Positions 71-63,147 of a stretch of DNA of 64,000 bases are shown one piece after another. A program made the translations under genes and the position numbers. Source of the stretch: Paludibacteraceae bacterium (lineage in GTDB: Bacteria > Bacteroidota > Bacteroidia > Bacteroidales > Paludibacteraceae); NCBI GenBank assembly GCA_051870915.1, contig JBJECI010000024.1:1423-65422 (forward strand), in the 5' to 3' direction. How positions within the stretch are numbered: position 1 is the stretch's first letter; every line of letters starts with the position of its first letter. The notes beneath the pieces are model-generated. The model searched no databases and was not told the origin of the DNA. It was given only the letters and a program-made list of their open reading frames with translations.

Positions 71-1174
71 ATGCAACATTTTCTTGATTATATTGCCATT
101 GAGCGGCACTATTCGCCGAAGACGGTCAGCGCTTATCACGATGACCTGCGGGATTTCTGCCGCTTCCTCGGCGTGGAGCCTGAGCAATATGACCCGAAGA
201 TGGTGGACGAGGAGGATGTGAAAGCATGGATGATGCACATGCTCGACGAGCAGAAACAGTCCGTCCGCAGCGTCAAACGGCGGCTATCCAGCCTGCGGTC
301 GTTCTATAAGTACTTGTTGCGTATAGGGCGCGTGGAGAAAGACATCACGCAGCGCGTCATCGCCCCTAAAGCCGACAAGCCGTTGCCCGTCTTCTTCCGC
401 GAGAGCGAGATGGAGCAAGCCACGGAGATGGACTTCGCCGCCGATGATTTCTGCGCTGCCCGCGACTGCCTCATCATCGAACTGCTCTACCAAACGGGCA
501 TGCGTCGCGCGGAGTTATGCCACCTCATGCCCGCCGACATTGACCTCACGCAGAAGCAGATACGCGTGTTCGGCAAACGCCGCAAAGAGCGCGTCATCCC
601 CATCGGCGACACCCTCGCCACCCAGATACAGACCTACCTCGGGTTTCGAGAGGAGTTAGGAGTACAGAGTATTGGAGGTGCGGTCTCCTGGCCGCACCAA
701 AAAGACTTTCAAGGAGGTGCGGTCTCCAGGCCGCACCAAGGAGACTTTCAAGGAGGTGCGGTCTCCAGGCCGCACCAAGAGAGCGAAATGGATACCATGG
801 TGCGGCTCCCGAATAATCGGGATAACACTTCCAACCGCACCTCCATGAGCACCGCAGCCCTTCCCCTCCTACTGAAGCAGACCCGCAAGGAGGAGATAAA
901 GCCCCTGACGGAGAACGATATCTACCGTATCGTGCGCTCGCGCATGGGCGAGGTCAGCTCCCTCAAGAAACACTCCCCACACGTGCTGCGACATACCTTC
1001 GCCACCACCATGCTCAACCACGGCGCAGATATCCGCACCATACAAACTCTGCTCGGACACGCCTCTCTCAGCACCACGCAGGTATATACCCACACCACCT
1101 TCGAGCAAGTGCAGAAAGCCTATCAACACGCCCACCCGAGAGCGAAAAAACAAGAAGACCCAAAGACCCTCTAA
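71..1174 (+). CDS. Tyrosine site-specific recombinase, XerC/XerD family, with an internal repeat-derived insertion
   Basis: 367-aa ORF. N-terminal core-binding motif IERHYSPKTVSAYHDDLRDFCRFL. Catalytic-domain motifs TGMRRAEL, HVLRHTFATTML and LLGHASLSTTQVYTH. Nt ~655-870 encode non-conserved filler that includes three 39-nt tandem units. Confidence 0.88.
   Translation: MQHFLDYIAIERHYSPKTVSAYHDDLRDFCRFLGVEPEQYDPKMVDEEDVKAWMMHMLDEQKQSVRSVKRRLSSLRSFYKYLLRIGRVEKDITQRVIAPKADKPLPVFFRESEMEQATEMDFAADDFCAARDCLIIELLYQTGMRRAELCHLMPADIDLTQKQIRVFGKRRKERVIPIGDTLATQIQTYLGFREELGVQSIGGAVSWPHQKDFQGGAVSRPHQGDFQGGAVSRPHQESEMDTMVRLPNNRDNTSNRTSMSTAALPLLLKQTRKEEIKPLTENDIYRIVRSRMGEVSSLKKHSPHVLRHTFATTMLNHGADIRTIQTLLGHASLSTTQVYTHTTFEQVQKAYQHAHPRAKKQEDPKTL
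674..790. repeat. Three tandem 39-nt units, each carrying an HP-A hairpin, inside the XerC/D-like CDS
   Basis: HP-A copies at 674-698, 713-737 and 752-776, period exactly 39 nt. Translated as GGAVSWPHQKDFQ / GGAVSRPHQGDFQ / GGAVSRPHQ. Confidence 0.95.
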
Positions 1175-1175
1175 A

Positions 1176-1258
1176 TCTCCCTTAAAGGGAGACTTATATA
1201 AATAACTATTGTTTAACTTTAACTAACTTCCCAAATCTCTCCCCCTTTAAGGGGGAGA
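1176..1258. repeat. Two TCTCCC(CC)TTTAAGGG(GG)AGA hairpins between the recombinase gene and hpf
   Basis: Hairpins at 1176-1192 and 1238-1258. The same motif occurs inside the MBOAT CDS at 60466-60500. Confidence 0.85.
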
Positions 1259-1276
1259 CGGAGGGGGTCCTTTATT

Positions 1277-1564
1277 ATGAAACTCAACACCCAAGCCGTC
1301 AATTTTGACATCGCTGACCGTCTGTCAGCCCACATCGAGAAGAAAACCCGTCGTTATGAGAAACTGTTACCCGAGGCTGCCGAGATGGAGATTCGCCTGA
1401 CCGTCATCAAGCGCGAGACCAACCTCAACAAAGAGGCAACCATCCGCGTGCGCGGTATCGGCAACGAACTCTTTGCGGAGAAAGTGTGCGACACCTTCGA
1501 GCAGGCGGTGGACGAGGCACTGGATGCACTCGACCGCCAGATAGAGAAGCATAATGCGAAATAA
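1277..1564 (+). CDS. hpf: Ribosome hibernation promoting factor / RaiA (short form)
   Basis: 95-aa ORF starting MKLNTQAVNFDIADRLSAHIEKKTRRYEKLL. Size and sequence are typical of the HPF/RaiA family. Confidence 0.85.
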   Translation: MKLNTQAVNFDIADRLSAHIEKKTRRYEKLLPEAAEMEIRLTVIKRETNLNKEATIRVRGIGNELFAEKVCDTFEQAVDEALDALDRQIEKHNAK

Positions 1565-1640: not shown

Positions 1641-4334
1641 ATGCGTCCGGCATTGTGCATCGGCTTTTTGGCATGCTGCCTTGCGCTCTCTGCCGGCGAG
1701 GTGATACTCGTGGGCGATGTGCTGAACGAGGCAACGGGCGAGCCTATCCCCAACGTGCACCTCTACCTGCAAGGCACGCAGCAAGGGACGGTCACCAACG
1801 ATGAGGGCAGTTTCTGCCTGAAAGCCGACATCGACCGCAAGCGGCGGCTCATCATCTCCGCCGTCGGCTACCACACCCAGCGCTACGACATCGAGCCGAA
1901 CACCATGGCGGGCATGCAGGTGCTGCTGCGCGAGAAGACAAACCTCTTGGCGGAGGTGGTCGCCCTTCCGGGAGAGAACCCCGCCATCCCCCTCATTGCC
2001 CAAGTGCGCGCCCATCGCCCAGAGAACGACAGGACGTTACAGAGCCAAGACTATCGTCCGGGTGCGCAGGCGTCCCCGCCTGCTGTAAAGGAGGTGCGGT
2101 CTCCAGGCCGCACCATAGGATGCCCGGGTGTGCAGGCGTCCCCGCCTGCTGATTTCAAGATTCACCCATCGGACGCCGAGCAGACATGGCTCGCCTCTAC
2201 CGAACTGTATATCAGCCATATCGGCAAGCGGCAACTGCAACGCCATCTATGGAAGAGCCTGCGGGCGGGCTTGCTCACCACGGATGACTCCACTTTCCTC
2301 CTGCCCCTCTATCGCTCCACCCAACCCGTGCATCTCATCGGCAAGGGCATGCGCCCCGCGGGCGAGAAACAGGAGCAAGCACTCATCCTCTCCGCCTCCG
2401 ACTACTCCGTCCTGCTCACCCCGCCGCAGAACCTCAATTTCTACCTCAACACCCTTGACATCCTCGGCGAAAGTTTCCTCTCACCGCTCGCTTCCTCCGG
2501 CAACACCTACTATCACTATTACCTCGCCGACTCCGTGGCAGGCGCGTACTTGGTGCATTTCCGCACGAAGAACCCTTTCTATGCCACCTTCAACGGCGAG
2601 ATGTGGATAGACTCAGCCACCTACGCCGTGCGGTCGGTCTATGCCGAGGTGCCGACGCAGAGTCGCGTGAACTACCTGAGCCAACTGCAGATACGCCAGC
2701 AGTTCGCCCCCGACCACAGCCTCAGCCGTGAGCAGATAAGTGTCCTGCTCGACTTCGCCGTCAAGACCGACACCACCCACCTCTTCCCCACCGTACTGCT
2801 GAGGACGGAGGTAAGGGATGAAAGATTAAGGACGCAGGATGAAAGACTAAATAGTTCTGTGGATAATGGAGGTGCGGTCTCCATGCCGCCCCAAGGAGAC
2901 TTTCAAGGAGGTGCGGTCTCCATGCCGCACCAAGAAGGAACTGCGGTCTACAACAACTCCCCCGCCCCGCTTGCGGGGAGGGGGCAGGGGGCGGGGAACG
3001 ACTGCAATAATGGAGGTGCGGTCTCAGAGACGAATGTAATAAGTCCTTCATCCTTCATCCTTCATCCTTCATCCGAATTAGATTCCCTCCCCCTCATCCG
3101 CGTGGCGAAGTTCGCGGCGACGGTGCTCACCACGGGCTATATCCCTACGGGCACGTGCATAGACATCGGCAACATCCGCGAGATACTCGACTTCGGCGAG
3201 AGCGAGTTTGTGCACCTCGGGTTGCCGTTGCGCACCAACGAGCGGCTGTGGAAGAACGTGTCCTTAGAAGCCGCAGCGGGCTACGGCTTCCACGACCAAC
3301 GCTGGAAAGGGCTCGGGAAGATAAGTATCAACCTGCCCACGCAGCGGCGCAACATCCTGCGCTTGGAATACCAAGACCATTATATCGCCACCGAGGTGGA
3401 CGGTATGTATCCCTACTACCACGAGAACTTCTTCGGCAAGCGGCAGTTTGACTTCACCTCGTTCCTCTTCCGCAACCTCTACACCAACCGGCAAGCCGTG
3501 AACACCTATTCGCGGCAACGTGAGTTCCGCATAGAGACAGAGAACGACTGGAGCGACCTGCTGGAGACCCGCCTATACGCCCATGTCGGCAGGTGGGACC
3601 CGTGGTACACGGCGCAAGCCGCCAACAACCTCGCGCCCGGCATCCTCGCCACCGCCCCCTATCGCTATCAGTCCATTGGCACCGTCTTCCGCCTGAGTTG
3701 GGGCGAGCGCAAGGTGGACGGCTATTTCCTGCGCCGCTATGTCCACAGCCAATACCCCACCCTCTTCCTCTCCGCCGAGGCAGGAAGCGTACAGGATGTA
3801 GGATTAAGGACACAGGATAAAGGACTTATTAGTGTCGACTCTGGGGAAGCGGGCACCTATTCCCTGTATGCCAAACTGCAAGTGCTCGTCAAGCAGCGGG
3901 CGCGGTTGGGCATGGGCGGCACCCTCGATTGGGCGTTCTCCGCGGGCTATATCTTCGGCGAGGTGCCCTACCCCATGCGCCACCATTTCGAGGGCAACCA
4001 GTCGTATGCCTTCGACCCCTACCGCTTCACGCTGATGAACAACCTGCAATACAGCGCCCGCGGCTGGCTCTCGCTCCACGCGCTCTGGGACGGGCAGGGC
4101 GTGCTCTTCAACCTTATCCCGGGCATACGCTACTGTCGCCTGCACGAACTCGTGGACTTCAAACTCGCGTGGGGCGACGGCGAGTTGCTCCATAGTCCCT
4201 ACACCGAGGTGGGTGTCGGCATTGGCAATATCTTCCGCGTGGGCGAGGTGTATGCCGTCTGGCGGCTCACCCACCGCCAAGACCTCACCGCCCCCACATG
4301 GGGCATCCGCTTCCGATTCAAATTGGGGTTGTGA
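1641..4334 (+). CDS. DUF5686-like protein with N-terminal carboxypeptidase-regulatory-like domain, heavily interrupted by repeats
   Basis: The ORF opens at 1554. The in-frame ATG at 1641 gives a signal-like MRPALCIGFLACCLALSAG. CarbopepD_reg-like segment VILVGDVLNEATGEPIPNVHLYLQGTQQGTVTNDEGSFCL..ISAVGYH, followed by a long beta-rich C-terminal region. Repeat insertions lie at 2058-2151, 2811-3074 and 3792-3843. Confidence 0.7.
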   Translation: MRPALCIGFLACCLALSAGEVILVGDVLNEATGEPIPNVHLYLQGTQQGTVTNDEGSFCLKADIDRKRRLIISAVGYHTQRYDIEPNTMAGMQVLLREKTNLLAEVVALPGENPAIPLIAQVRAHRPENDRTLQSQDYRPGAQASPPAVKEVRSPGRTIGCPGVQASPPADFKIHPSDAEQTWLASTELYISHIGKRQLQRHLWKSLRAGLLTTDDSTFLLPLYRSTQPVHLIGKGMRPAGEKQEQALILSASDYSVLLTPPQNLNFYLNTLDILGESFLSPLASSGNTYYHYYLADSVAGAYLVHFRTKNPFYATFNGEMWIDSATYAVRSVYAEVPTQSRVNYLSQLQIRQQFAPDHSLSREQISVLLDFAVKTDTTHLFPTVLLRTEVRDERLRTQDERLNSSVDNGGAVSMPPQGDFQGGAVSMPHQEGTAVYNNSPAPLAGRGQGAGNDCNNGGAVSETNVISPSSFILHPSSELDSLPLIRVAKFAATVLTTGYIPTGTCIDIGNIREILDFGESEFVHLGLPLRTNERLWKNVSLEAAAGYGFHDQRWKGLGKISINLPTQRRNILRLEYQDHYIATEVDGMYPYYHENFFGKRQFDFTSFLFRNLYTNRQAVNTYSRQREFRIETENDWSDLLETRLYAHVGRWDPWYTAQAANNLAPGILATAPYRYQSIGTVFRLSWGERKVDGYFLRRYVHSQYPTLFLSAEAGSVQDVGLRTQDKGLISVDSGEAGTYSLYAKLQVLVKQRARLGMGGTLDWAFSAGYIFGEVPYPMRHHFEGNQSYAFDPYRFTLMNNLQYSARGWLSLHALWDGQGVLFNLIPGIRYCRLHELVDFKLAWGDGELLHSPYTEVGVGIGNIFRVGEVYAVWRLTHRQDLTAPTWGIRFRFKLGL
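2058..2151. repeat. HP-C / HP-A / HP-C composite inside the DUF5686-like CDS
   Basis: CCGGGTG(C/T)GCAGGCGTCCCCGCCTGCTG at 2058-2085 and 2123-2151, flanking HP-A at 2090-2114. Translated as PGAQASPPAVKEVRSPGRTIGCPGVQASPPA. Confidence 0.9.
2811..3074. repeat. 264-nt composite insertion: MB left arm, 2 HP-A units (39-nt period), GD-like G/C hairpin, half HP-A, MB right arm
   Basis: MB arm at 2811-2860. HP-A at 2868-2892 and 2907-2931. CTCCCCCGCCCCGCTTGCGGGGAGGGGGCAGGGGGCGGGG at ~2957-2996. Half HP-A at 3012-3025. GTAATAAGTCCTTCATCCTTCATCC... runs to 3074. The reading frame stays open. Confidence 0.9.
3792..3843. repeat. MB left arm plus core start inside the DUF5686-like CDS
   Basis: CAGGATGTAGGATTAAGGACACAGGATAAAGGACTTATTAGTGTCGACTCTG, translated as QDVGLRTQDKGLISVDS. 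Confidence 0.85.
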
Positions 4335-4523: not shown

Positions 4524-4555
4524 CTTGCATATTTCGTTAAAAAGCAGTACCTTTG
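4524..4555 (+). promoter_or_regulatory. Bacteroidota sigma-A-type promoter for the candidate sRNA
   Basis: cTTG at 4524-4527 and TACCTTTG at 4548-4555, spacing 20 nt. Shared extended context TTGCATAT..AAAAAGCAGTACCTTTGCA. Confidence 0.7.
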
Positions 4556-4561
4556 CACCCG

Positions 4562-4778
4562 CAGTTGATTAGTGGGAGTACATATTTTTATTAAAAGCGT
4601 TATAAGCCTCACTTGATTCTTTGAAAACTGGACACTTTCAAGAATTTTATGTATTCAAGCACAGGTTTATGCACGCTCACGTGTTAGCGTGGGTTTTCTG
4701 TGCGTAAGTTTGAATACATAAGGTAGTCCAGAACCTCAAAGAATCAAATGAAGCGAAACGAAAGTTCACGCTTTTTTT
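4562..4778 (+). ncRNA. Candidate ~215-nt structured sRNA (long imperfect hairpin; 6S-like architecture is only a hypothesis)
   Basis: Strong promoter at 4524-4555. Hairpin 4613-4747 with perfect helices TTGATTCTTTGA/TCAAAGAATCAA (4613-4624 with 4736-4747), CTGGAC/GTCCAG and TTATGTATTCAA/TTGAATACATAA (4647-4658 with 4709-4720), apex CACGCT..AGCGTG. A small hairpin plus T7 tract lies at 4751-4778. Confidence 0.45.
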
Positions 4779-8192: not shown

Positions 8193-8355
8193 GGAAAAAG
8201 ACCCTCTAAGTCTCTCAAAATCAAAGATTTTTCGGGAACCTCGGAAAGGGAGACTTTTTAGAAGCAGACAGGGATGCCTGCGCACCCTGACAATGACCGA
8301 TTTTTCGGACGACTAAAAATCTTATATCGAACTCATGTTATTTAGTATGCTTTGC

Positions 8356-8545
8356 AACTCCCCCGCCTCCCTCTTAGGGGGGGGGGGGGGGAGGGGAGGA
8401 GGACTCGGCATTCAGCCGCACTATAACATTCAAAAACTGAGACTATTAAGTCTTTTATCCTTTATCCCCCTTTGCGGCTGTAGTGCCGAACGTACCATCC
8501 CGCCCCCTGACCCCCTCCCCTCCTTTCAGGAGAGGCGGGGGAGTT
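8356..8545. repeat. Inverted pair of GD elements; the left copy carries a G15 homopolymer
   Basis: Left copy at 8356-8421 with a G run at 8377-8391. Right copy, reverse-complemented, at 8471-8545. Other GD copies at 35806-35880, 35923-35994, 43551-43625 and 62231-62303. Confidence 0.9.
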
Positions 8546-8630
8546 AGAGCTACATTCGTCTGTTTTGGATGAAAGATAACAAGGATGAAAGACTTATTAC
8601 ATTCGTTCACTTATATCGAACTCACGTTAT

Positions 8631-10174: not shown

Positions 10175-10879
10175 ATGTACAAACGCATCTTACTGAAACT
10201 ATCGGGCGAGAGCCTTATGGGCGCGAAGGGCTATGGCATTGACGAGCAACGCCTTGCCGCCTACGCCCGCCAAATCAAAGAGATAGCCGACCTCGGTGTG
10301 CAGATAGGTATCGTCATCGGCGGCGGCAACATCTTCCGCGGGTTGAGCGGCAGTCAGAAAGGGTTCGACCGCGTGAAAGGCGACCAGATGGGTATGCTCG
10401 CCACGGTCATCAACTCGCTCGCCTTGCAGTCGGCGCTGGAAGCCATCGGGCAGAAAGTGCGTGTGCTGACCTCCGTGCGCATGGAGCCTATCGGCGACTT
10501 CTACAACAAAGCCAAAGCGCTGCGCTTGTTTGAGAAAGGCAACGTGGTGATTGTCGCCGGCGGCACCTCCAACCCCTATTTCACCACCGACACGGCGTCG
10601 GCGCTGCGTGCCATCGAGTTGGAAGCCGACATCATGTTCAAAGGTACGCGCGTGGACGGGATATATACCGCCGACCCGGAGAAAGACCCCAATGCACAGA
10701 AGTTCAGCGAGATAACCTACCAAGACATCCTCTCCAAGGGGCTGCGTATCATGGACTTGACCGCCATCACGATGTGCATGGAGAACAAAATGCCCATCTA
10801 CGTCTTCGACATGGACACCGAAGGCAACCTGCTCAAAGTGATACAGGGCGAGGAGATTGGGACGCTGGTTACTCCGTGA
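10175..10879 (+). CDS. pyrH: UMP kinase
   Basis: The ATG at 10175 gives MYKRILLKLSGESLMG. Motifs GIVIGGGNIFRG and VVIVAGGTSNPYFTTDTASALRA. Confidence 0.95.
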   Translation: MYKRILLKLSGESLMGAKGYGIDEQRLAAYARQIKEIADLGVQIGIVIGGGNIFRGLSGSQKGFDRVKGDQMGMLATVINSLALQSALEAIGQKVRVLTSVRMEPIGDFYNKAKALRLFEKGNVVIVAGGTSNPYFTTDTASALRAIELEADIMFKGTRVDGIYTADPEKDPNAQKFSEITYQDILSKGLRIMDLTAITMCMENKMPIYVFDMDTEGNLLKVIQGEEIGTLVTP

Positions 10880-11015: not shown

Positions 11016-11016
11016 A

Positions 11017-52045: not shown

Positions 52046-52111
52046 CAGCCGATTTTGGAGAGAGGATGGGTGAGATGATTAGGATTCAGGAATTGTCTTT
52101 GTTTATTTGTT

Positions 52112-52163: not shown

Positions 52164-52168
52164 AAATA

Positions 52169-53451: not shown

Positions 53452-55506
53452 ATGAAGTACTTGGATAGGATAAATAGTCCTGCGGACTTGAGGCAGTTGC
53501 CGGTGGCGGCGTTGCCGGAGGTGTGCGCGGAGGTGCGGCAGTTCATCATCGAGGAGTTGAGCCACAATCCCGGGCATTTAGGCTCGTCCTTAGGCGCGAT
53601 AGAGTTGACGGTGGCGCTGCACTATGTGTTCGACACGCCCGACGACCGCATCGTATGGGATGTGGGGCATCAGGCATACGCGCACAAGATACTGACCGGC
53701 AGGCGGGAGCGTTTTCATACCAATCGGCAGTTCAAGGGACTGGCACCTTTCCCGACGCCGTTAGAGAGCGAATACGACACGTGCGTATGCGGGCACGCAA
53801 GTAACTCTATATCGGTGGCGCTCGGGATGGATATCGGGGGGAAAGTGGTTAGTGAGGAACAGGAAAACAACGGGAGTTCTACCGCAGGCGAGACGCCTTC
53901 GTCCCCGGTGAAGAGGAAGCATGTGGTGGCGGTGATAGGCGATGGGGCGATGACGGGCGGACTGGCGTTTGAGGGGCTGAACAACACCTCGATGCGGAAG
54001 AATGACCTGCTGATAGTGCTCAACGACAACAACATGGCGATAGACCCGCTGAAAGGCGGCTTCACACAGTATCTGCTCGACATCACCACCAGCTCGTTCT
54101 ACAACCGCTGGCGCTGGCGACTGTATCAGTTGGCTGTGCGGCTGCACCTGATGGACGAAGAGAAGAAGCAGCAGGTGATGCGGCGGCATAACAACCTGAA
54201 AAGCATCCTCACCAAGCAGCCGAACAACATCTTCCAAGCGATGAACATCCGCTATTTCGGTCCGGCAGACGGGCACGATGTGGTGGACTTGGTGCGTATC
54301 CTGCGCGAGATAAAGAACCACAAGGGTCCGAAAGTGCTGCATATCATCACGAAGAAAGGCAAGGGTTACGCCCCCGCGGAGCAAGACCAGACGACATGGC
54401 ATGCGCCCGGGGAGTTCTGCGTGGAGACGGGCGAGCGCAAGGCAGACCATGCTGCGAAAGCAGGAGTGCCGCCGCTGTGGCAGGAGGTGTTCGGCGAGGA
54501 GTTGCTGGCGATGGCGCGGGAAGACGCGCGCGTGGTGGGCGTTACGCCCGCGATGCCGTCGGGCTGCTCGATGAGTATCATGCAGAGAGTGTTCCCCGAT
54601 AGGGTGTTCGATGTGGGGATAGCCGAGGGGCACGCGGTTACGTTCTCTGCCGGCATGGCGAAAGAGGGCGCGGTGGTGTTCTGCAATATCTATTCCTCGT
54701 TCCTGCAACGCGCCTACGACAATATCATCCACGACGTGGCGATAGCGCAGTTGCCTGTCATTCTGTGCATTGACCGCGCGGGGATAGTGGGCAACGACGG
54801 TGCGACCCACCACGGTTTGTTCGACCTCGCATACATTAGACCGATACCTCACCTCGCTATCTGCGCCCCGCGGACGGCAGGCGACCTGCGGGCGATGATG
54901 CGCCTTGCACCGACCTTAGGCAGACCCGTGGCGATACGCTACCCGAGGGGGAGGAGCGTGGAGGATGTCCTTGGAGAGCAAGGAGCCGAGAACCAAGAAC
55001 CAAGACCGATATGCGTTGGTAAGGGAGTGTGCCTGCGGGAAGGCACGGATATGGCAGTGTTGAGTATCGGTGCGATAGGCAACACCGTGGCGGAAGCGAT
55101 AGATTTGTTGGAACAAAGAGCCAAGAGCCAAGAACAAGGACTAAATAGTGCCGATGCTGAAAACTCAGAGACGAGTGTAATAAGTCCTTCATCCTGCGTC
55201 CTTTATCCTTTATCCAAAATCGCCCATTACGACATGCGGTGGCTCAAGCCCTTAGACGAAGACCTGCTACGGGAAGTGGGCGAGCGATTTAGGACCATCG
55301 TAACCGTGGAGGACGGCGTGATAGACGGCGGACTGGGCAGCGCGGTGCTGGAGTGGATGGCTGACCACGGCTTCACCCCCCGCGTCATCCGATTGGGCGT
55401 GCGCGACCAATTTGTAGAGCACGGCAGCACGCAGGAGTTGTATCATCTGTTGAAATTAGATAAAGAAGGAATATGCGAATCGTTATTGCAGGCGCTGGAG
55501 AAGTAG
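53452..55506 (+). CDS. dxs: 1-deoxy-D-xylulose-5-phosphate synthase with three repeat-derived insertions
   Basis: 684-aa ORF. Motifs [31 protein letters not shown] (TPP binding) and [17 protein letters not shown]. Extra segments at ~53842-53923, ~54974-55006 and 55111-55215 are absent from the E. coli Dxs layout as I recall it. Confidence 0.93.
53884..53906. repeat. Reverse-oriented HP-C inside dxs
   Basis: GCAGGCGAGACGCCTTCGTCCCC is the reverse complement of GGGGACGAAGGCGTCTCGCCTGC. It lies within the extra segment [25 protein letters not shown]. Confidence 0.85.
54974..55006. repeat. MB-variant (CAAGAAC words) inside dxs
   Basis: GAGAGCAAGGAGCCGAGAACCAAGAACCAAGAC. Compare the CNNM tail at 43396-43427. 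Confidence 0.75.
55111..55215. repeat. Near-complete MB element (105 nt) inside dxs
   Basis: GAACAAAGAGCCAAGAGCCAAGAACAAGGACTAAATAGTGCCGATGCTGAAAACTCAGAGACGAGTGTAATAAGTCCTTCATCCTGCGTCCTTTATCCTTTATCC, translated [35 protein letters not shown]. Confidence 0.92.
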
Positions 55507-56923: not shown

Positions 56924-58426
56924 ATGACTCGTACATTCAATAGGAAGATAGTAGTGAAGACGCTGGGCGCGCTGTTGTGCCTCGAGGCGTTGTTCATGCT
57001 GATACCGATGTTCACCTCGCTGGCGTACCGCGAGCCGGACTTCGAGGCATGGCTGGTGAGTACGGCTATCACCCTGCTCGCGGGCTTGCTCGGGCTGCTG
57101 ATAGGCAGGCGGGCGGAGCGCAAGGTGGCAGAGCGCGAGGGATACGCCATCGTGGCGCTGGTGTGGATAGTCTATTCCATCTTCGGCGTGTTGCCGTATT
57201 GGTTGAGTGGCGCGTTCTCTTCCTTCACCGACTGCTGGTTCGAGACCATGTCGGGCTTCACCACCACGGGTGCCACCATAGCGAGCGACGTGGAGAGCCT
57301 GACGCACGGCGTGCTCCTCTGGCGCAGCCTCAGCCAGTGGATGGGCGGCATGGGTATCATCGTGCTCTCGGTGGCTATACTCCCGATGTTCGGCTTGGGC
57401 GGCATGCAGTTATACGCCGCGGAAGTTACGGGTGTCAGTTACGAGAAACTGTCGCCGCGTATCGCCGACACGGCGAAGCACATGTGGGGACTCTATATCG
57501 TGATGACCTTGGCGGAGACTGGCCTGCTCTATCTCTTCGGCATGAGTGGTTTCGATGCCGTGTGCCACTCGCTCTCCACCATCTCCACGGGCGGTTTCTC
57601 CACGCGCAACGAATCGGTAATCAACGACGGAGCGGCTATCCAATACACCATTGCCGTCTTCATGTTCCTGTCGGGTATCAACTTCACCTACCTCATCCAC
57701 GCCCTGCGCGGCAAGCCCGGCAAACTCTTCCGCGACGAGGAGACGCGCTGGTACGCCGGAGCGGTGGCGGTATGCACGCTGGTGCTGGCAACGGGACTTT
57801 TCATCCACTATATGTTCCGCGAGGGCTACCCCAATGAGTTCGCCGGCGACGGTGTGTGGTGGCAGGCGCTGGAGACCTCTCTGCGCAAGGGTTTCTTCAT
57901 GGTTACCACGGCGATGACCAGTAGCGGTTTTGCCGCGTCGGACTACATGAGTTGGCCCAAACTGCTGTGGGTATTGGTGTTCTTCATGATGTTCACGGGA
58001 GCCAGTTCGGGCTCTACTGCGGGCGGTATCAAGTGGGTTCGCTTGGGTATCTTCGCCAAGTCGGCACTGGTGGAGTTGCAGAGGCGTATCCATCCTAACG
58101 CCATCATCCCCGTGCGCTTCAACGGGCGAGCGGTCAGCGAGCAGACCATCAGCAACGTGATGGCGTTCCTCTTCTTCTACTTGATTATCATCGTGCTGAC
58201 GGTGATTGTCTTCTGCGCTACAGGGGTCGCTTTCGATGAGGCAATAGGCACTGCCGTCTCGGCGATGGGTAATGTGGGTGTCAGCATCGGGCAGTTCGGA
58301 CCTCTGGGCAGTTATGCCGACTTCCCCACCGTAGCGAAATGGACGATGACCTTCGTGATGTTGATTGGTCGTCTGGAAATCTTCACCGTGCTCCTGCTCT
58401 TCACGAAAGCGCTGTGGAAGAAATAG
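56924..58426 (+). CDS. trkH: TrkH-family potassium transporter membrane subunit
   Basis: 500-aa polytopic ORF with selectivity-filter-like MSGFTTTGAT and STGGFST motifs. Confidence 0.9.
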   Translation: MTRTFNRKIVVKTLGALLCLEALFMLIPMFTSLAYREPDFEAWLVSTAITLLAGLLGLLIGRRAERKVAEREGYAIVALVWIVYSIFGVLPYWLSGAFSSFTDCWFETMSGFTTTGATIASDVESLTHGVLLWRSLSQWMGGMGIIVLSVAILPMFGLGGMQLYAAEVTGVSYEKLSPRIADTAKHMWGLYIVMTLAETGLLYLFGMSGFDAVCHSLSTISTGGFSTRNESVINDGAAIQYTIAVFMFLSGINFTYLIHALRGKPGKLFRDEETRWYAGAVAVCTLVLATGLFIHYMFREGYPNEFAGDGVWWQALETSLRKGFFMVTTAMTSSGFAASDYMSWPKLLWVLVFFMMFTGASSGSTAGGIKWVRLGIFAKSALVELQRRIHPNAIIPVRFNGRAVSEQTISNVMAFLFFYLIIIVLTVIVFCATGVAFDEAIGTAVSAMGNVGVSIGQFGPLGSYADFPTVAKWTMTFVMLIGRLEIFTVLLLFTKALWKK

Positions 58427-58432
58427 GGTGAT

Positions 58433-58538
58433 CAAGTTTCAGGTTTCAAGTCTCAGGTTTCAGGTTTCAAGTTTCAGGTTTCAAGTTTCAAGTTTCAGGT
58501 TTCAAGTTTCAAGTTTCAAGTTTCAAGTTTCAAGTTTT
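58433..58538. repeat. W repeat: about 15 tandem GTTTCAA/GTTTCAG heptamers between trkH and the SGNH gene
   Basis: CAAGTTTCAGGTTTCAAGTCTCAGGTTTCAGGTTTCAAGTTTCAGG...GTTTCAAGTTTCAAGTTTTAGG. Confidence 0.95.
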
Positions 58539-58546
58539 AGGTATAG

Positions 58547-60094
58547 GTGAAGCCCTCTCGTATCGCGATATTGATTTGGTGTGCCATCGCCCTGTTAGGG
58601 GTGATGTGTCTTGTATTGCCCGAGCGTATGCAGATAGGTCCACTCACCCTCCGATGGACGACCCTCAACAAAGTGCTGGGCAGTCAGGATGAAGGATTTC
58701 CTTTGGATGAAGGATTAAGGATGAAGGATGAAGGACTTGATAGTACAGCCTTTATGGAGGTGCGGTCTCCAGGCCGCACCCAATACAATGCAGACTTAGA
58801 ACCGAATGGTGCGGCCGGGAGACCGCACCTCCTTGACACCTCAGAGACGAAGGTAATAAGTCCTTCATCCTGTGTCCTTCCTCCTTTATCCCAAGAAAGT
58901 CCTTCATCCTGCGTCCTTCATCCTTCATCTGTGGAGGAGGAGGTGCAAGGCGATTCCGATGTCTTGACCGCCTTCCGTCAAGGCTTGGCGGAGGCGGATA
59001 GGCGGACAGTGCGCGTGGTGCACTACGGCGACTCGCAGATAGAGGAAGACCGCATGACGCAGACCCTGCGCCGCCGATTGCAAGCCGTCTATGGCGGCGG
59101 AGGAGTGGGCATGCTCCCCTTGCAGCAGACCATCCCCACGCGCACCATCAAGCAGACCCTCACCGTCAACGGCATCCGACAGACCACGCAGCAGGGACCC
59201 CGCCGCCACTTGGTCTATGGACCGAAGGCGCAACGCCGCGACAACGGTTTGTACGGTCCCATGGGACAGGTGGCGCTCCTCGGCGACACCACTCTCCAAC
59301 GGCAAGACAGCGCAGTCTTGCATGTAGAGCCGATGGGGAAGAAACCCTATTCCGAGACCTATTTTAACCGCGCGCGCGTATGGGCGGCAGGCGACTTCCG
59401 CTGCTACGTGAATGGGCAACCAATACCCACAGGAGGTGCGGTCTCCAGGCCGCACCATGAAGGGGATAGGCTTACTTTGGTGCGGTCTGGAGACCGCACC
59501 TCCTATGTGCTCGCGGACAGCACCACTTCCTGCGACCTTGCGCTGGTGGGCTGCGGCGAGGTCTATGCCGTCTCCCTCGAGACGGAGAGAGGTGTTATCG
59601 TGGACAACATCCCCATGCGCGGCTGCACAGGCACTATCTTCACCGACATCGACAGCACGCAGTTGGCTACCTTCTACCGAGAGACCAATACCCGACTGAT
59701 TATCATGCAGTTCGGTGGTAATGCCATCCCCTTCAACGAGCAGCCGACCACCATCGCGGGCACGGTGCAAAGCCTGCGCAAGCAGGTGCGCTACCTGCGC
59801 CGATGTGCGCCCGAGGCAAGTATCTTGTTTGTAGGACCCGGGGATATGCTGACGCAGATTGACGGCGAGACAACGACCTACCCGCTGCTGCCCTACATGG
59901 ACCGACTGCTCAGGAAGATGGCGGCGGAGGAGCACATCGCCTATTTCAGCCTCTATGAGATGATGGGCGGCAAAGACAGCATGCTGCGCTGGCAGAAAAA
60001 CGGCTGGGCAGGCAGCGACGGAGTCCACTTCACCCGCCGCGGCGCCGAGATAGCAGGAGAAAAACTATCAGAATACATCATGAAGAATTTGTAA
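58547..60094 (+). CDS. SGNH/GDSL-type hydrolase or acyltransferase partner protein, N-terminal region filled with repeats
   Basis: 515-aa ORF with GTG start and an N-terminal TM helix. SGNH blocks VVHYGDSQIEED, MQFGGNA and DGVHFTRRGAEI. Repeat DNA lies at 58686-58929 and 59432-59503. Confidence 0.72.
   Translation: MKPSRIAILIWCAIALLGVMCLVLPERMQIGPLTLRWTTLNKVLGSQDEGFPLDEGLRMKDEGLDSTAFMEVRSPGRTQYNADLEPNGAAGRPHLLDTSETKVISPSSCVLPPLSQESPSSCVLHPSSVEEEVQGDSDVLTAFRQGLAEADRRTVRVVHYGDSQIEEDRMTQTLRRRLQAVYGGGGVGMLPLQQTIPTRTIKQTLTVNGIRQTTQQGPRRHLVYGPKAQRRDNGLYGPMGQVALLGDTTLQRQDSAVLHVEPMGKKPYSETYFNRARVWAAGDFRCYVNGQPIPTGGAVSRPHHEGDRLTLVRSGDRTSYVLADSTTSCDLALVGCGEVYAVSLETERGVIVDNIPMRGCTGTIFTDIDSTQLATFYRETNTRLIIMQFGGNAIPFNEQPTTIAGTVQSLRKQVRYLRRCAPEASILFVGPGDMLTQIDGETTTYPLLPYMDRLLRKMAAEEHIAYFSLYEMMGGKDSMLRWQKNGWAGSDGVHFTRRGAEIAGEKLSEYIMKNL
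58686..58929. repeat. Composite in the SGNH CDS: MB left arms, forward HP-A, reverse HP-A, MB core and two right arms
   Basis: GGATGAAGGATT..GGATGAAGGATTAAGGATGAAGGATGAAGGACTTGATAGT. HP-A at 58756-58780 (read as EVRSPGRT) and 58808-58832 (read as GAAGRPHLL). GACGAAGGTAATAAGTCCTTCATCCTGTGTCC...GTCCTTCATCCTGCGTCCTTCATCCTTCATC. Confidence 0.92.
59432..59503. repeat. Forward plus reverse HP-A pair inside the SGNH CDS
   Basis: HP-A at 59432-59456 (GGAVSRPHH) and 59479-59503 (VRSGDRTS). Confidence 0.92.
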
Positions 60095-60180
60095 ATTTGA
60101 AAATTTGAAAATTTGAAAATTATTACCTTTGCTCTGAATAGTTGGCATACAATGCCCTCATAATTCATAATTCATAATTA
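60088..60180. repeat. W element with non-matching arms (AAATTTG left, CATAATT right) and reverse core TGCTCTGAATA
   Basis: TTTGTAAATTTGAAAATTTGAAAATTTGAAAATT. Core at 60130-60140. CCCTCATAATTCATAATTCATAATT. Confidence 0.9.
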
Positions 60181-60183
60181 GTA

Positions 60184-62193
60184 TTGTCTTTCCTTCACCA
60201 CATATTCGCTTTTGACAGCAACTCGCCGTTGCTCTTCACCCAGTTCTACTTCTGGGCGTTCTTTGCGATTGTCTATTCTGTCTTCGCACTGATAGTCCGC
60301 AAACAGACGAGTGCCCGTCTGCACCTGCGCAACGTCTTCCTGCTCTTCGTATCGTGGTTCTTCTACTACAAAACGAGCGGGCTCTTCCTGCTGATATTGG
60401 CGTTCGTAACCCTATCCGACTGGCTCATCGCCAAAGGAATATACCGTGCACGATATGCAACACCAAACTCTCCCCCTTTAAGGGGGAGTCGGAGAGGGTC
60501 TTTCCTCCTAATCTTATCCGTAGTGATAGACTTAGGACTATTGGCGTACTTCAAGTATGCTTACTTCTTCACCAACATGGTGAACGACCTGTTTGGGTGC
60601 TCCTTCGAGGTGTTCGATGTCTTTGCCTACGTAGGCAACGGCTTTCGGACGACAGGGCAGTTCGACGTGGAGAGTATCGTGCTGCCCGTAGGTATCAGTT
60701 TCTACATCTTCCAAGTCATCTCCTACACGGCGGACATCTATCGGGGAAAGATAAAGCCTGTGAGCAACCTGCTCGACTTCGGCTTCTACGTATCCTTCTT
60801 CCCACAGTTGGTGGCAGGTCCGATAGTCCGCGCCGAGGAGTTCATCCCCCAGTTGTACAAGCCTTTCCACCTGAGCAGGCGACAGTTCGGGATGGCGGTC
60901 TTTTGGATACTCAACGGACTGACGAAGAAAATCATACTGAGCGACTACTTGGCAGTGAACTTCATAGACCGCGTGTTTGATAACCCGCTGCTGTTCAGTG
61001 GCTTTGAGAACCTCTTTGCGCTCTTTGCCTACTCGCTGCAAGTCTATGCCGACTTCTCCGGCTACACGGATATAGCCATCGGCGTGGCGATGTTAATGGG
61101 CTTCTACCTGCCCAAGAACTTCAACTCTCCCTACAAAGCACAGAACCCGCAGGAGTTTTGGCGCAGATGGCATATGTCGCTCTCGCGCTGGTTGAAGAAC
61201 TACCTCTATATCCCGCTGGGCGGCAACCGCAATGCCACCTTCGGCACGTATTTCTGGATAGCACTCATTGCCCTCATCGCCTTGGTGCTGACAGGCTCGT
61301 GGGCAGCAACGGCGGTGATAGCCGCAGTGGCGGTAGTCGTAGCGCTGGTAGCGTACTTCCGACCCGCTCACCGCAAACTGCTCTACGCCAACCTCAACTC
61401 GTTCATCACCATGCTGCTCGGAGGACTATGGCACGGAGCCAGTTGGAACTTCATGATTTGGGGAGGACTGAACGGTATAGGGATGATAGTCAATAAGTTC
61501 TGGCGCACGATGGGGTGGAACCTTCGGCTTATCCTGCTGACAGCGCTGACCTTCTCCCTCATGCTCGCCGACCACTTCACCCACCTGCCCGCCATTCGGG
61601 TCTTCACCGTCTGGGCACTCATCGTCTGGGCAGGGACGATGGTACGATACATGCGACGAATCTTCTTGGATAAAGGATTCAGGATAAAGGATAAAGGACT
61701 AAATAGTACTGGGGACGCGGGCGTCTCGCCCGCGGTAGAAAAGCATTATACCGAGAACTCAAATCCAAAGGTAATAAGTCCTTCATCTTGTGTCCTTTAT
61801 CCTTCATCCTTCATCTCCAAAGCGTGGGCTGTGTTGCAGACCTTTACGTTCATCACCTTCACACGTCTGTTCTTCCGCTCGGGCTCGAACCTCGACCCTG
61901 CTACCGCCAACCAAGTGGCGTGGGAGACGGCAACCAACATGATGAACCAGATAGGCGGAGCATGGGATAGCAGTATCATCCCTGCGTTCATGCGAGAGTA
62001 TTGGGCAGTGGTAGTGCTGTTTGTGCTGGGTATGGTGATACACTGGCTGCCCGACAAGTGGAAGCAGTGGTATCGTCTGCGCTTTGCCTCCCTGCCGCTG
62101 TGGGCAATGCTGCTCGCGGTAGCCGCGGTAGTGTTCATCGTCTATCAGTTCATCACAGCAGATATGCAACCGTTCATCTATTTCCAATTCTAA
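60184..62193 (+). CDS. MBOAT-family O-acyltransferase (AlgI/PatA-like) with two repeat insertions
   Basis: 669-aa polytopic ORF with TTG start. MBOAT motifs FWRRWHMSLSRWLKNYLYIPLGGN and GLWHGASWNF. Insertions lie at 60466-60500 and 61669-61815. Confidence 0.88.
   Translation: MSFLHHIFAFDSNSPLLFTQFYFWAFFAIVYSVFALIVRKQTSARLHLRNVFLLFVSWFFYYKTSGLFLLILAFVTLSDWLIAKGIYRARYATPNSPPLRGSRRGSFLLILSVVIDLGLLAYFKYAYFFTNMVNDLFGCSFEVFDVFAYVGNGFRTTGQFDVESIVLPVGISFYIFQVISYTADIYRGKIKPVSNLLDFGFYVSFFPQLVAGPIVRAEEFIPQLYKPFHLSRRQFGMAVFWILNGLTKKIILSDYLAVNFIDRVFDNPLLFSGFENLFALFAYSLQVYADFSGYTDIAIGVAMLMGFYLPKNFNSPYKAQNPQEFWRRWHMSLSRWLKNYLYIPLGGNRNATFGTYFWIALIALIALVLTGSWAATAVIAAVAVVVALVAYFRPAHRKLLYANLNSFITMLLGGLWHGASWNFMIWGGLNGIGMIVNKFWRTMGWNLRLILLTALTFSLMLADHFTHLPAIRVFTVWALIVWAGTMVRYMRRIFLDKGFRIKDKGLNSTGDAGVSPAVEKHYTENSNPKVISPSSCVLYPSSFISKAWAVLQTFTFITFTRLFFRSGSNLDPATANQVAWETATNMMNQIGGAWDSSIIPAFMREYWAVVVLFVLGMVIHWLPDKWKQWYRLRFASLPLWAMLLAVAAVVFIVYQFITADMQPFIYFQF
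60466..60500. repeat. CTCCCCCTTTAAGGGGGAG hairpin inside the MBOAT CDS
   Basis: AACTCTCCCCCTTTAAGGGGGAGTCGGAGAGGGTC, translated NSPPLRGSRRGS. Compare 1238-1258. Confidence 0.88.
61669..61815. repeat. 147-nt MB element with a nested HP-C inside the MBOAT CDS
   Basis: GATAAAGGATTCAGGATAAAGGATAAAGGACTAAATAGTACT, HP-C at 61711-61735, then ...AAAGGTAATAAGTCCTTCATCTTGTGTCCTTTATCCTTCATCCTTCATC. Translated [49 protein letters not shown]. Confidence 0.92.
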
Positions 62194-62195
62194 TC

Positions 62196-62432
62196 AGCAG
62201 ACCGCGCTTCGCGCTGTCCGGGTGCAGCCAAACTCCCCCGCCTCTCCTGAAAGGAGGGGAGGGGGTAAGGGGGCGGGATGGTACATTCGGCAACAGCCGC
62301 AAAAAAGCAAATTGTAAAATAGTAAATGGTCAAATAGTCAAATACTGTCTGGGGGACGTCCCGACTGTGTCGCGGACAGCAAAGCGGTCGGACAATAAAA
62401 TGGTCAAATAGTAAATTGTCAAATTGTCAAAT
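62196..62432. repeat. GCGC hairpin, GD element and GTCAAAT word repeats between the MBOAT gene and coaE
   Basis: AGACCGCGCTTCGCGCTGTC. GD at 62231-62303. CAAATTGTAAAATAGTAAATGGTCAAATAGTCAAAT and GGTCAAATAGTAAATTGTCAAATTGTCAAAT. Confidence 0.88.
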
Positions 62433-62439
62433 AAAAGAC

Positions 62440-63147
62440 ATGTTAATCGGTATCACAGGCGGAATAGGAAGTGGCAAGTCCAGGATAGCGCAGGCACTGC
62501 GCAGTCGGGGCTATGCCGTGTACGATACAGATACAGAGGCGAAGCGGATTATCGTGGAGAATCCGATGGTGCGTTCGCAGGTAGAGATGCTCTTCGGCTC
62601 GCAGGTGTTCGAGGGGGATGTCTATCGGACGCAGTTAGTAGCCAAGCAGGTCTTCCACCACCCCGACTTGTTGGCGGAACTGAACCATATCGTCCACCCC
62701 GCCGTTGCCTTCCACCTCAAGCAATGGGCAAAAGAGCAGAAGGGGACCCACCCCAGCCCTCCCCAAAGTTACCCCACTGCGCGTTGCTTGCAGGGACCCC
62801 AAGAGGGAGGGAGGTTAGAGACTACACCCATATGTTTCGTAGAATCGGCTATCTTGTTTGCAAGCGGCTTGGACCAACTCTGCGACAAGATAGTGGTGGT
62901 AACCGCGCCGGAAGCGTTGCGCATTGAGCGTACCATACAGCGTGATTACCGCGGGGAGCGGACGGCGGAGAACATCGCCAAAGTGAAGCAGCGGATTGCC
63001 GCACAAACAGAAGAAGAGTCTGCCATGCGCCGCTGCCAAGACACCAGCCTCAATAAACATAATTTCATACTCACACTCATTAACGATGGTGCACTCTCCA
63101 TAGAAGAACTGACGAATGAGATTATTCGCTCTGCTTACAAAATGTAA
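62440..63147 (+). CDS. coaE: Dephospho-CoA kinase with a repeat insertion
   Basis: The ATG at 62440 gives MLIGITGGIGSGKS (P-loop). The body is typical of CoaE. The segment GTHPSPPQSYPTARCLQGPQEGGRLE (62744-62816) interrupts it. Confidence 0.88.
   Translation: MLIGITGGIGSGKSRIAQALRSRGYAVYDTDTEAKRIIVENPMVRSQVEMLFGSQVFEGDVYRTQLVAKQVFHHPDLLAELNHIVHPAVAFHLKQWAKEQKGTHPSPPQSYPTARCLQGPQEGGRLETTPICFVESAILFASGLDQLCDKIVVVTAPEALRIERTIQRDYRGERTAENIAKVKQRIAAQTEEESAMRRCQDTSLNKHNFILTLINDGALSIEELTNEIIRSAYKM
62744..62816. repeat. GG element inside coaE
   Basis: GGACCCACCCCAGCCCTCCCCAAAGTTACCCCACTGCGCGTTGCTTGCAGGGACCCCAAGAGGGAGGGAGGTT, an imperfect palindrome and homolog of 9201-9274. Confidence 0.88.

Follow-up and report, generated by a model that had tools for sequence, protein, structure and literature searches.

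Palindromic repeats that lie in frame within protein genes are established for the Rickettsia palindromic elements (RPEs; Ogata et al. 2000, reviewed with later work in PMC10969869 and PMC3733652). In-frame RPEs have been described as unusually frequent in Rickettsia, and 44 integrations were first reported for the whole genome of R. conorii (PMC10969869). Here, we analyse a 64 kb stretch of DNA (the window) from an uncultured human-gut member of the Paludibacteraceae (Bacteroidales), in which a palindrome of ~110 nt with heptamer-repeat arms (F1) and several smaller hairpins (among them F2, F3/F3b and F4) occur between genes and also, in frame, within conserved housekeeping genes. We propose that these repeats are probably selfish elements that spread by copy-and-paste, and that their in-gene copies have been filtered by selection for frame, absence of stop codons and tolerant loops.

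In RPEs and in the window alike, palindromic repeats are intergenic as well as in frame in conserved housekeeping genes whose open reading frames (ORFs) stay intact, the inserts are compatible with the protein fold, and several families share a genome. RPEs are foldable palindromes of ~100–150 bp, a size that F1 matches. The analogy with RPEs drawn in a preliminary description of the window, as in-frame copies of intergenic repeats, is apt. The two systems differ in that the taxa are unrelated, most units here are far smaller (25–45 nt), the units nest in each other and in the heptamer-armed palindrome, and site content varies between congeneric genomes. Homology to RPE sequences is unlikely, given the different phylum. 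In terms of density, about 10 of the roughly 46 genes in the window (about a fifth) carry inserts, compared with the 44 integrations in the whole R. conorii genome (PMC10969869).

Rickettsia is far from the only genus with palindromic repeats in frame, as shown by intragenic repetitive extragenic palindromes (REPs) in Opitutus, Thauera and Xanthomonas (PMC3733652) and by the QMITEs of Coxiella (PMC5896051). REPs, together with the bacterial interspersed mosaic elements (BIMEs) and REP doublets (REPINs), are tied to REP-associated tyrosine transposases (RAYTs; PMC3116915). Intragenic REPs with GTAG or CGTC tags encode 20–30 aa as dimers and 43–82 aa as clusters in Opitutus, Thauera, Rickettsia and Xanthomonas, and CGTC-tagged REPs have been reported in Bacteroidetes (PMC3733652). 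Our repeats resemble REPs and REPINs as imperfect palindromes of 20–40 nt in many copies, in their inverted doublets (the F2 pairs of an SGNH hydrolase gene), in their mosaic clusters and in their insertion into or beside existing repeats; the CGTC beside the F4 stem may be a further likeness. REPs are defined as largely extragenic, but 11 of the 15 F2 copies here lie within genes. F2 also lacks a GTAG or CGTC tag, the DNA examined revealed no RAYT, and heptamer arms are foreign to REPs.

Miniature inverted-repeat transposable elements, or MITEs, offer a further point of comparison. QMITE1 and QMITE2 of Coxiella may extend or interrupt ORFs in frame (PMC5896051), and the ERIC/RU elements are bacterial MITEs (PMC2759123). 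BrickBuilt of P. gingivalis, the only Bacteroidota MITE whose location is stated in one review, is reported to be strictly intergenic (PMC10969869). Like MITEs, some of which give rise to in-frame fusions or C-terminal extensions, the window repeats are non-autonomous and have inverted ends; in a similar way, the left arm of F1 provides genes with stop codons or read-through tails at their ends. Unlike MITEs, they show neither target-site duplications nor a recognisable parent insertion sequence (IS). The preliminary label 'MITE-like' is loose, since no target-site duplications were seen and most units are REP-like hairpins of 25–40 nt nested in a heptamer-armed palindrome.

The closest architectural parallel comes from cyanobacteria. 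Elhai et al. 2008 reportedly described small dispersed repeats (SDRs), hairpins of 21–27 nt, within tandem heptamer repeats (STRRs). These SDRs are said to nest in their own copies, to show compensatory stem changes, to occur in genes and to have no known transposase. Hairpins of ~25 nt, heptamers, nesting and compensatory stems are found here too. The differences lie in the phylum (reportedly a subgroup of the Nostocales, compared with Paludibacteraceae) and in the sequences themselves, in heptamer arrays that form the two arms of a palindrome, and in the many in-frame copies in core enzymes.

In the literature, of which our coverage was incomplete, we came across no account of hairpin repeats lying in frame within genes of Bacteroidales. 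What appears to be new here is the occurrence in this taxon, at this density, with hairpins nested among heptamers and with variation from strain to strain; the principle is already known.

Repeat families and their nesting

Comparison of the window with itself reveals dozens of repeat families. The arms of F1 consist of 7 nt repeated imperfectly in tandem, (GGATGAA)n...(TTCATCC)n, placed around a GACTAAATAG core. The order is left-arm heptamers (GGATGAA, GGATTAA, GGACACA), GACTAAATAGT, a short centre, a sequence resembling ACTATTTAGTC and, complementary to the left arm, the right arm (TTCATCC)n. Complementarity extends to the GGACACA variant unit, so that terminal inverted repeats are present; half elements are found as well. 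The small hairpins, which include F2, F3/F3b and F4, are GC-rich, REP-like and ~25–45 nt in length. F2 (GGAGGTGCGGTCTCCAGGCCGCACC) is a 25-nt hairpin that sometimes forms 39-nt tandem units or inverted pairs, while F3 and F3b are hairpins of the CCCCGCC...GGCGGGG type. F4 (GGGGACGCGGGCGTCTCGCCCGCGG) exists in two stem variants that differ by compensatory changes (GCGGGCG/CGCCCGC and GCAGGCG/CGCCTGC). By sequence inspection, CGTC adjoins the F4 stem, and F2 and F3 have neither a GTAG nor a CGTC tag. Further AT-rich heptamer or octamer arrays consist of AATTCAT, AATTAAC, AATTTGAA or TTTCAAG units.

The window holds 15 copies of F2, eight of the F1 core and four each of F4 and F3, where 0 are expected (100 shuffles each). 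The 5' leader of the DUF5686 gene holds one more F4-like copy (1597–1621), the fifth, which has diverged further. The families insert into one another: F2 pairs, F3b and F4 are found in F1 centres (DUF5686 site 2, SGNH, MBOAT and intergenic 51694–51931), F3 follows GACGAAGGTAA of the F1 centre, and F3b adjoins F4. Six of the 15 F2 copies fall within F1 centres, which make up <1% of the window. Two inverted F2 doublets (58756/58808 and 59432/59479) are able to form one long hairpin each.

We compared the window with related loci. Its best protein matches are metagenome-assembled genomes (MAGs) labelled Paludibacteraceae, and its nearest DNA relatives are human-gut MAGs. The contigs L001 and L003–L005 span the stretch from dxs to coaE; ftsK and lolA are represented by L006 and L007, and xer and the DUF5686 gene by L008 and L009. 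L010–L089 are malQ loci from 80 species, among which L010–L016 are congeneric with the window. F1–F4 are present in L001–L016 and absent from the loci of the 73 other Paludibacteraceae species, except for stray matches in two. The F2 copies of the window are almost identical to each other and number 15 in 64 kb, compared with 6 in the ~140 kb of nine congeneric contigs scanned. This abundance and near-identity suggests a recent burst in the lineage of the window. A scan against Rfam found no family that covers the repeats and no intron match, and F2 had no match in viral contigs.

The reference intergenic F1 palindrome (24931–25063, plus strand) fills the spacer between rnfE and rnfA and folds with −29.3 kcal/mol (z −3.2). 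Other intergenic F1 copies or clusters lie at 8337–8606, 11572–11732, 22307–22422, 32095–32218, 35786–36055, 43385–43690, 51694–51931, 52095–52167 and 62205–62436; the F1 right half at 52095–52167 adjoins a tRNA-Ser gene. Two F1 palindromes thus occupy spacers inside the Rnf operon, namely rnfC–rnfD (22307–22422) and rnfE–rnfA. In the latter, the upstream stop codon lies in the F1 left arm and the next start codon a few bases past the right arm, which makes it unlikely that the Rnf-operon copies are strong terminators. Ordinary terminator-like hairpins occur elsewhere in the window, for example at 14167–14204 and 49021–49062.

The in-gene segments are probable insertions into intact hosts

The preliminary description had named 11 coding sequences (CDSs) as carriers of near-identical copies of the window's repeats. 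All 11 ORFs are open and of the named identity, judging by translations and Pfam, and the recurrent low-complexity peptides are present in the translations as written. The starts in the raw ORF list are over-extended for NrnA, MalQ, CoaE and DUF5686, which leaves the sites unaffected. Ten of the 11 genes do carry repeat copies. BLAST within the window matches intergenic repeats to Xer 655–870, to the three DUF5686 sites, to NrnA 9444–9555, MalQ and Dxs 55111–55215 and to both sites each in SGNH and MBOAT. The inserts are 90–100% identical to intergenic copies over 25–76 nt, and a tandem F2 dimer common to Xer and DUF5686 is 96% identical over 68 nt. For LolA, RnfG and Dxs 53842–53923, the matches are to other in-gene F4 copies, and no intergenic F4 match exists in the window; relatives hold at least two intergenic F4 copies. 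Dxs 54974–55006 matches only weakly, to a heptamer array. NrnA 9196–9335 and CoaE 62744–62816 gave no BLAST match. Judged by inspection, both consist of hairpins of related kinds, either nested or diverged; they are insertions relative to solved homologues and, for CoaE, also relative to congeners.

Only the FtsK linker (17691–17950, minus strand) had to be dropped as a repeat insert. It has no match elsewhere in the window, consists of its own 6- and 9-nt micro-repeats and differs from relatives by indels of 6, 9 and 27 nt only, as an ordinary low-complexity linker does.

Flanking DNA of the congeners is ~84–92% identical to the window, and the proteins are 80–99% identical. Against this background, the sites differ by sharp-edged presence or absence between congeners, which is seen at the protein level too for Dxs, DUF5686 and MalQ. 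Orthologues at 50–81% identity are without the segments. This bears on the idea that the segments are native, lineage-specific low-complexity linkers whose likeness to intergenic repeats is merely compositional. Such an account is true for FtsK, and the RnfG tails and the MalQ linker do vary in all relatives. For the other 10 hosts it is refuted by the near-identity to intergenic copies, of which chance predicts 0, by the clean presence/absence between near-identical genes and by the recurrence of the same units in unrelated proteins. As a general explanation, we thus consider it very improbable.

The hosts are not pseudogenes: the ratio of non-synonymous to synonymous substitution rates (dN/dS) is 0.05–0.42, no host gene has an internal stop in any genome compared, and catalytic columns are invariant. 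Neither do the segments look like assembly errors, although all sequences are MAG contigs and repeats often confuse assemblies. The same inserts recur in independent assemblies (36 nt in MBOAT of the window and L001; 39 nt in Dxs of the window, L004 and L005), and one insert-bearing Dxs protein is identical in an NCBI MAG and a Logan assembly. A related thought is that the segments are removed after transcription or translation, as introns, intervening sequences or inteins would be; a PF05635 'rRNA intervening-sequence protein' gene does sit in a related AT-rich palindrome of the window. If the segments were removed, however, nothing would enforce multiples of three or stop-free frames. Moreover, the translations have no intein-like residues at the junctions, the insert ends vary, and Rfam yields no intron. 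Artefact or removal is hence scarcely credible.

Genes of the relatives outside the window's set also carry such sequences. LigA, RNase R, DUF6913, NIF3 and TatD contain the same repeat peptides or in-gene F2/F4 copies (L001 6127–8286 and 1250–2737; L005 4775–6835 and 6840–7448; L007 7120–7173 and 16725–16749), and an Exo_endo_phos protein has the peptide modules too. The encoded peptides include VVSLVRPGDRTS, DAGVSPAV and VRSPGRT, and SDSEAVGQQSGRTAKRS is another module.

Insertion sites in individual proteins

The tyrosine recombinase Xer carries an insert of 171 nt or 57 codons (687–857, plus strand). It is built of three tandem 39-nt F2 units, with F2 copies starting at 674, 713 and 752, and a terminal inverted F2 whose loop holds another small hairpin; the region encodes the peptide GGAVSRPHQGDFQGGAVSR. 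The window alone has this insert, which L008 and L009 (90–92% identical) lack. There, the empty site reads AATGGAGGTGC followed directly by CTCTTCCC, and GGAGGTGC, the first 8–9 nt of F2, is already in place. Compared with the solved structure 9i5v, the window protein has 81 aa at this site instead of 14. That structure, the best match of the Xer protein among solved structures, is a 401-aa chain deposited as 'RaiA'; a separate RaiA/HPF gene (1277–1564) lies just downstream of xer in the window (both within 71–1564) and in relatives.

The DUF5686 protein has three sites on the plus strand. Site 1 (2058–2162) consists of an F4-like hairpin, F2 (2090–2114) and a second F4-like hairpin; it is absent from orthologues at 54–73% identity and variable among close ones. 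Site 2 (2811–3080) is an F1 palindrome with two F2 units, F3b and a partial F2 in its centre, which adds ~88 aa. Each close relative has different repeat cargo here, and distant ones have only a short loop. Site 3 (3792–3846) is an F1 left half, composed of a heptamer array and GACTTATTAG, with 13 matches in the window. It is common to the clade, longer in some relatives and absent at ≤73% identity.

NrnA (426 aa, minus strand) has two inserts. Insert A (9444–9584, aa 110–156) contains F2 at 9507–9531 and comprises 46 aa, compared with 6 in the solved homologue 4py9. Insert B (9191–9341, aa 191–241; 50 aa compared with 14 in 4py9) is a nested fold: a CCCGAC..GTCGGG hairpin splits an F4 copy, and after it comes a CCCTCCC..GGGAGGG hairpin that itself holds cargo; beyond 14 nt of F4 it has no BLAST match in the window. 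The AlphaFold (AF2) model of NrnA has a mean predicted local distance difference test score (pLDDT) of 87.6 and a predicted TM-score (pTM) of 0.83. Confidence is low only at residues ~115–155 and ~195–237, which are the two inserts (pLDDT 49–72 in A, 43–48 in B), each placed between conserved helices or strands. As the model superimposes on 3w5w, the nanoRNase of B. fragilis (TM-score 0.92, normalised to the target), the fold is predicted to be complete, with ~85 extra residues outside it. The proposal that the inserts map to surface loops is in line with this model of NrnA and with the gaps against solved structures at Dxs, Xer, CoaE and NrnA.

In LolA and RnfG, the repeat is F4. The 57-nt LolA insert (15612–15668, minus strand), made of F4 (15637–15661) and a G-rich tail, is found only in the window and is a clean gap in L006 and L007. 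The RnfG copy (24045–24074, plus strand) is 96–97% identical to those of LolA and Dxs and is part of the C-terminal tail, variable in all relatives, the nearest of which among metagenome contigs is only 74% identical. The following stretch (24075–24252) encodes a Cys/His-rich C-terminal extension of ~45 aa (…CECGKPIEECCKTKGTPCEGNCGNCKHNGEHKCKHDGEHHCKHNCKK), which is absent from relatives at 74% identity, whose proteins end earlier.

In MalQ (DPE2-type), an F1 left half, F3b and half of F4 (44537–44655, plus strand) lie in the linker between two CBM20 domains. Species at 72–81% identity are without this insert, and each of the congeneric species L010–L016 has different cargo. The locus L069, 99% identical to the window in its best protein segment and 93.5% in its DNA, begins downstream of the insert and so has no bearing on it.

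Dxs orthologues at 92–96% identity range from 642 to 759 aa, and a look-up of the window's exact Dxs protein found no record. Site 1 (53867–53905, plus strand) is a 39-nt insert with F4 in reverse. Of five genomes, the window, L004 and L005 have it, and in L005 another 132 nt are nested within; L001 and L003 are without the insert and carry an array of 21-nt period in its place. At site 2 (54968–55006, plus strand), an in-frame heptamer array is of the AAGAACC type in the window and of the GGATGAA type at the same place in L001 and L003; it is shorter in orthologues at 80% identity. Site 3 (55109–55218, plus strand) is an F1 palindrome in the linker between domains II and III. Its centre and right arm (75 nt, 55143–55217) are missing in L003, L004 has 30 nt more (an F2), and the whole insert is absent at 80% identity. 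An extra site after 55044 is empty in the window and filled by 33 nt in L004 and 96 nt in L005. Solved DXS structures lack ~18 residues of site 1 and have 8 aa instead of 40 at site 3. The AF2 model, built from an alignment of 54 sequences, is poor (pLDDT 50.6) and informative in its C-terminal half, where the low-confidence stretches 506–516 (pLDDT <50, site 2) and 563–586 coincide with inserts.

Heptamers in Dxs have switched type, from GGATGAA/GGATTAA to AAGAGCC/AAGAACC, at equal length and position (window 55109–55146 compared with L001 11435–11470; also 54980–55006). As a result, the F1 arms of the window copy are no longer complementary. The switch does not follow flank similarity between genomes. 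Adenine-specific mutagenesis, as in diversity-generating retroelements, was considered as its cause and rejected, as the differences are not adenine-specific.

The SGNH hydrolase gene has two sites on the plus strand. The N-terminal one (58685–58930) is an F1 palindrome with an inverted F2 pair in its centre (58756–58832) and an extra right-arm copy; it is hypervariable in five genomes, and the RNA of the F2 pair folds with −54.3 kcal/mol (z −9.5). The second (59416–59503) is a REPIN-like inverted F2 pair with a 27-bp stem (−62.8 kcal/mol, z −10.4). At 59416–59496 the window alone has a net gain of 57 nt, and the empty site resembles the other F2 end. Upstream of the gene, 58418–58549 consists of ~18 tandem TTTCAAG/TTTCAGG heptamers, at the position where relatives have an 11-nt array, (ACGTAGGATAT)n.

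In MBOAT, a small hairpin, CTCTCCCCCTTTAAGGGGGAG..GGAGAGGG (60463–60503, plus strand; 94% match to intergenic 1237–1269), is present in the window, L001 and L003 and absent in L004 and L005. The second site (61663–61821, plus strand; −52.3 kcal/mol, z −5.8) is an F1 palindrome with a 36-nt F4 insert in its centre (61709–61744), which only the window and L001 have among five genomes. In CoaE, a CCCTCCCC..GGGAGGGAGG hairpin of the CCCTCCC..GGGAGGG type with 36 nt of inner cargo (62737–62816, plus strand) adds 26 aa where the solved structure 1jjv has 0, and no other copy lies in the window. The site is a hot spot (62737–62800), with different content in every genome and a plain GGATGAA heptamer array in L001.

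Distribution of repeats and compatibility with the reading frame

Dispersed repeats cover 6.7% of the window, corresponding to 29.9% of intergenic and 2.7% of coding DNA. Although 35% of repeat bases lie within CDSs, the repeats are 11-fold depleted in coding DNA. The families differ in where they are found and in how they read. All four F4 matches and 11 of 15 F2 copies are in CDSs, and F2, F3b and F4 are free of stops in five of six frames. The left arm of F1 is open in one frame only, which reads DEGLRTQDERLNS, and its right arm in two; the intergenic F1 copy at 24931–25063 has stops in all six. AT-rich heptamer arms, which have stops in all six frames, are never found inside a CDS. As the preliminary description had read by eye from several inserts, lengths keep the frame: all coding indels that are well resolved have lengths divisible by three, compared with 20 of 43 intergenic indels. 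Since every ORF stays open, the fragmented indels of the hot spots must also sum to multiples of three. A scan of the other window genes for further strong hairpins revealed no clear missed inserts. This coverage pattern is the one expected from fairly indiscriminate insertion followed by selection.

Could the in-gene copies have been kept because they are useful, either as regulatory RNA hairpins (RNase III, attenuation) or as functional loops? The structures within the mRNAs are extremely stable (−54 to −63 kcal/mol), 10 of the 15 F2 copies are sense within a CDS and two more point in the same direction as the flanking genes, and some inserts are common to several species (MBOAT 60463–60503, DUF5686 site 3). 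On the other hand, the hosts are functionally unrelated, site content differs between close genomes (CoaE, DUF5686 site 2, MalQ), coding DNA is depleted of repeats, and the inserts are predicted to be disordered. Usefulness is therefore improbable as the reason for their retention.

Taken together, these data are best explained by selfish hairpin repeats that are copied and pasted and then sieved by selection, a model we hold to be probable. A genus-level clade would carry several families of selfish, non-coding hairpin repeats that spread into intergenic and coding DNA alike. New copies would land preferentially in or next to existing repeats, especially in the centres of palindromes, giving rise to nested mosaics. 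Selection would remove most coding insertions and leave those with a net length in multiples of three and a stop-free reading frame, located in termini, inter-domain linkers or surface loops. These survivors would be translated as disordered extra loops, which would explain the recurrent peptides in unrelated proteins. Insertion, rather than deletion, appears to have been the main direction of change.

How the repeats may have spread

As the agent of mobility, our leading guess is an enzyme of the RAYT or IS200/IS605 HUH type that recognises the hairpins and works in trans. Such an enzyme would fit the combination of tightly conserved 25-mers and absent target duplications. Inverted doublets, compensatory F4 stems, new sites without prior homology and the F2 burst lend further support. 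Among the Pfam labels of genes called in the related loci, no RAYT is found, and no parent IS with matching ends was seen in the DNA examined.

The alternative is that no mobility enzyme is involved, and that slippage, microhomology-guided template switching and gene conversion between hairpins move the sequences, with tolerant loops acting as sinks. The empty sites of two window-specific F2 insertions hold 8–10 nt of an F2 end, unit boundaries vary, blocks of several units recur at different sites, some nested blocks lie between direct repeats, heptamer type changes at identical length and position independently of flank similarity, and the window has no transposase. Homology-driven processes do not readily account for insertions that arose de novo, without an earlier repeat or obvious homology (57 nt in LolA; the extra Dxs site of L004 and L005), nor for the lineage-specific burst of nearly identical F2 25-mers, and the compensatory F4 stems suggest that the hairpin itself is recognised. 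We regard this alternative as possible but rather unlikely.

Several observations weigh against copy-and-paste insertion sieved by selection. The window contains no transposase, RAYT or IS200-like gene. No target-site duplication is seen at the Xer, LolA, MBOAT-F4, Dxs-F4 or SGNH junctions, and the F2 insert of L004 has at most an ambiguous 3-nt TGA duplication. Inserted units come with variable flanks (F4 inserts of 33, 36, 39 and 57 nt), different sites have multi-unit blocks in common (the F2 dimer of Xer and DUF5686), and two window-specific F2 sites (Xer and SGNH) already had sequence like an F2 end. Precise transposition explains these three features no better than recombination or template switching does, and the equal-length GGATGAA/AAGAGCC arm switches favour template switching or gene conversion. 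In addition, translation of the inserts is suggested by conservation of the frame, the direction of gain or loss for each event is judged from few genomes, all genomes compared are metagenome assemblies, and the Dxs model is poor. On balance, enzyme-mediated spread, with recombination reshaping the copies, is only weakly favoured.

Heptamer arrays with other units are common across Paludibacteraceae, also inside genes. In-frame examples from other species are L047 2675–2711, L074 2582–2613, L088 2707–2745, L049 3255–3284, L056 3288–3317 and 3596–3626, and L080 1445–1476. In three species, one and the same loop of an orthologous membrane protein holds CCTTTCA, CAGCCTT and GGTTACG arrays, respectively. 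MalQ of distant species has AGTCGAA arrays, which in L080 occupy the same CBM20 linker that holds GGATGAA heptamers in the window. The different arrays in the same loops of distant species and the constant-length switches between close genomes point toward an unrecognised, family-wide process that seeds 7-nt arrays and small hairpins, including into loops of essential proteins, similar to the STRR/SDR repeats that heterocystous cyanobacteria have. An unrecognised enzyme that targets hairpins, or a step templated by RNA, might drive such a process, which would be fast enough to produce protein-length polymorphism between co-existing gut strains. This is a tentative and, in our view, unlikely proposition; same-loop arrays are most parsimoniously explained by repeated independent retention at tolerant loops.

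Implications

If the density of copy-and-paste hairpins in the window extends to the whole genome, this would be among the densest repeat invasions of core genes in a free-living bacterium, in a host family that is common in gut and rumen. The repeat peptides have practical consequences for annotation, where they inflate protein lengths, split domain matches and break MAG assemblies. As inserts differ between congeneric genomes, they may be of use for strain typing. The sites in Dxs, CoaE, NrnA and XerD amount to a natural map of insertion-tolerant loops for protein engineering. Finally, the locus may offer a second independent system, beside cyanobacteria, in which tiny hairpins and heptamer arrays spread without an obvious transposase.

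Other features of the window

According to Pfam, nearly all ORFs of the window belong to ordinary housekeeping families. These comprise Xer, RaiA, PyrH, RRF, RsgA, GAPDH, TrxR, LolA, FtsK, the Rnf operon, Rpe, ComEC, XseA, TIM, RuvA, MalQ, ProRS, GlgP, Dxs, TrkAH, SGNH hydrolase, MBOAT and CoaE. Synteny with close relatives breaks at repeat-rich spacers, at ~51.7–53.4 kb and after 63.1 kb. In relatives, the gene immediately upstream of dxs is DHDPS; in the window, its place is taken by GlgP, three tRNA genes and clusters of repeats.

Between MalQ and ProRS, a PF05635 '23S rRNA intervening-sequence protein' gene (46989–47351) encodes a four-helix bundle, which we take to be Avd-like. It sits within AT-rich heptamer-armed palindromes (46877–47430), and the 22-nt sequence CATGGGCACTCATAATTCATAAT directly flanks it on both sides. 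Arms of the same kind without cargo occur at 10879–11020, 41558–41608 and 60134–60184, and the two arrangements may represent 'full' and 'empty' forms of one element.

A box of the form TTGCATATTTCG..AAAAAGCAGTACCTTTGCA recurs upstream of genes at 4525–4569, 36865–36909, 42303–42347, 52015–52059 and 63200–63244. From its sequence, it looks like a conserved Bacteroidetes-type promoter (TTG ... TAnnTTTG) rather than a mobile repeat. The ORF that starts at 63191 appears over-extended, because the last of these boxes lies within its start region. The Rfam scan also detected an Acido-Lenti-1 RNA at 33349–33394 (46.2 bits, above the gathering score).

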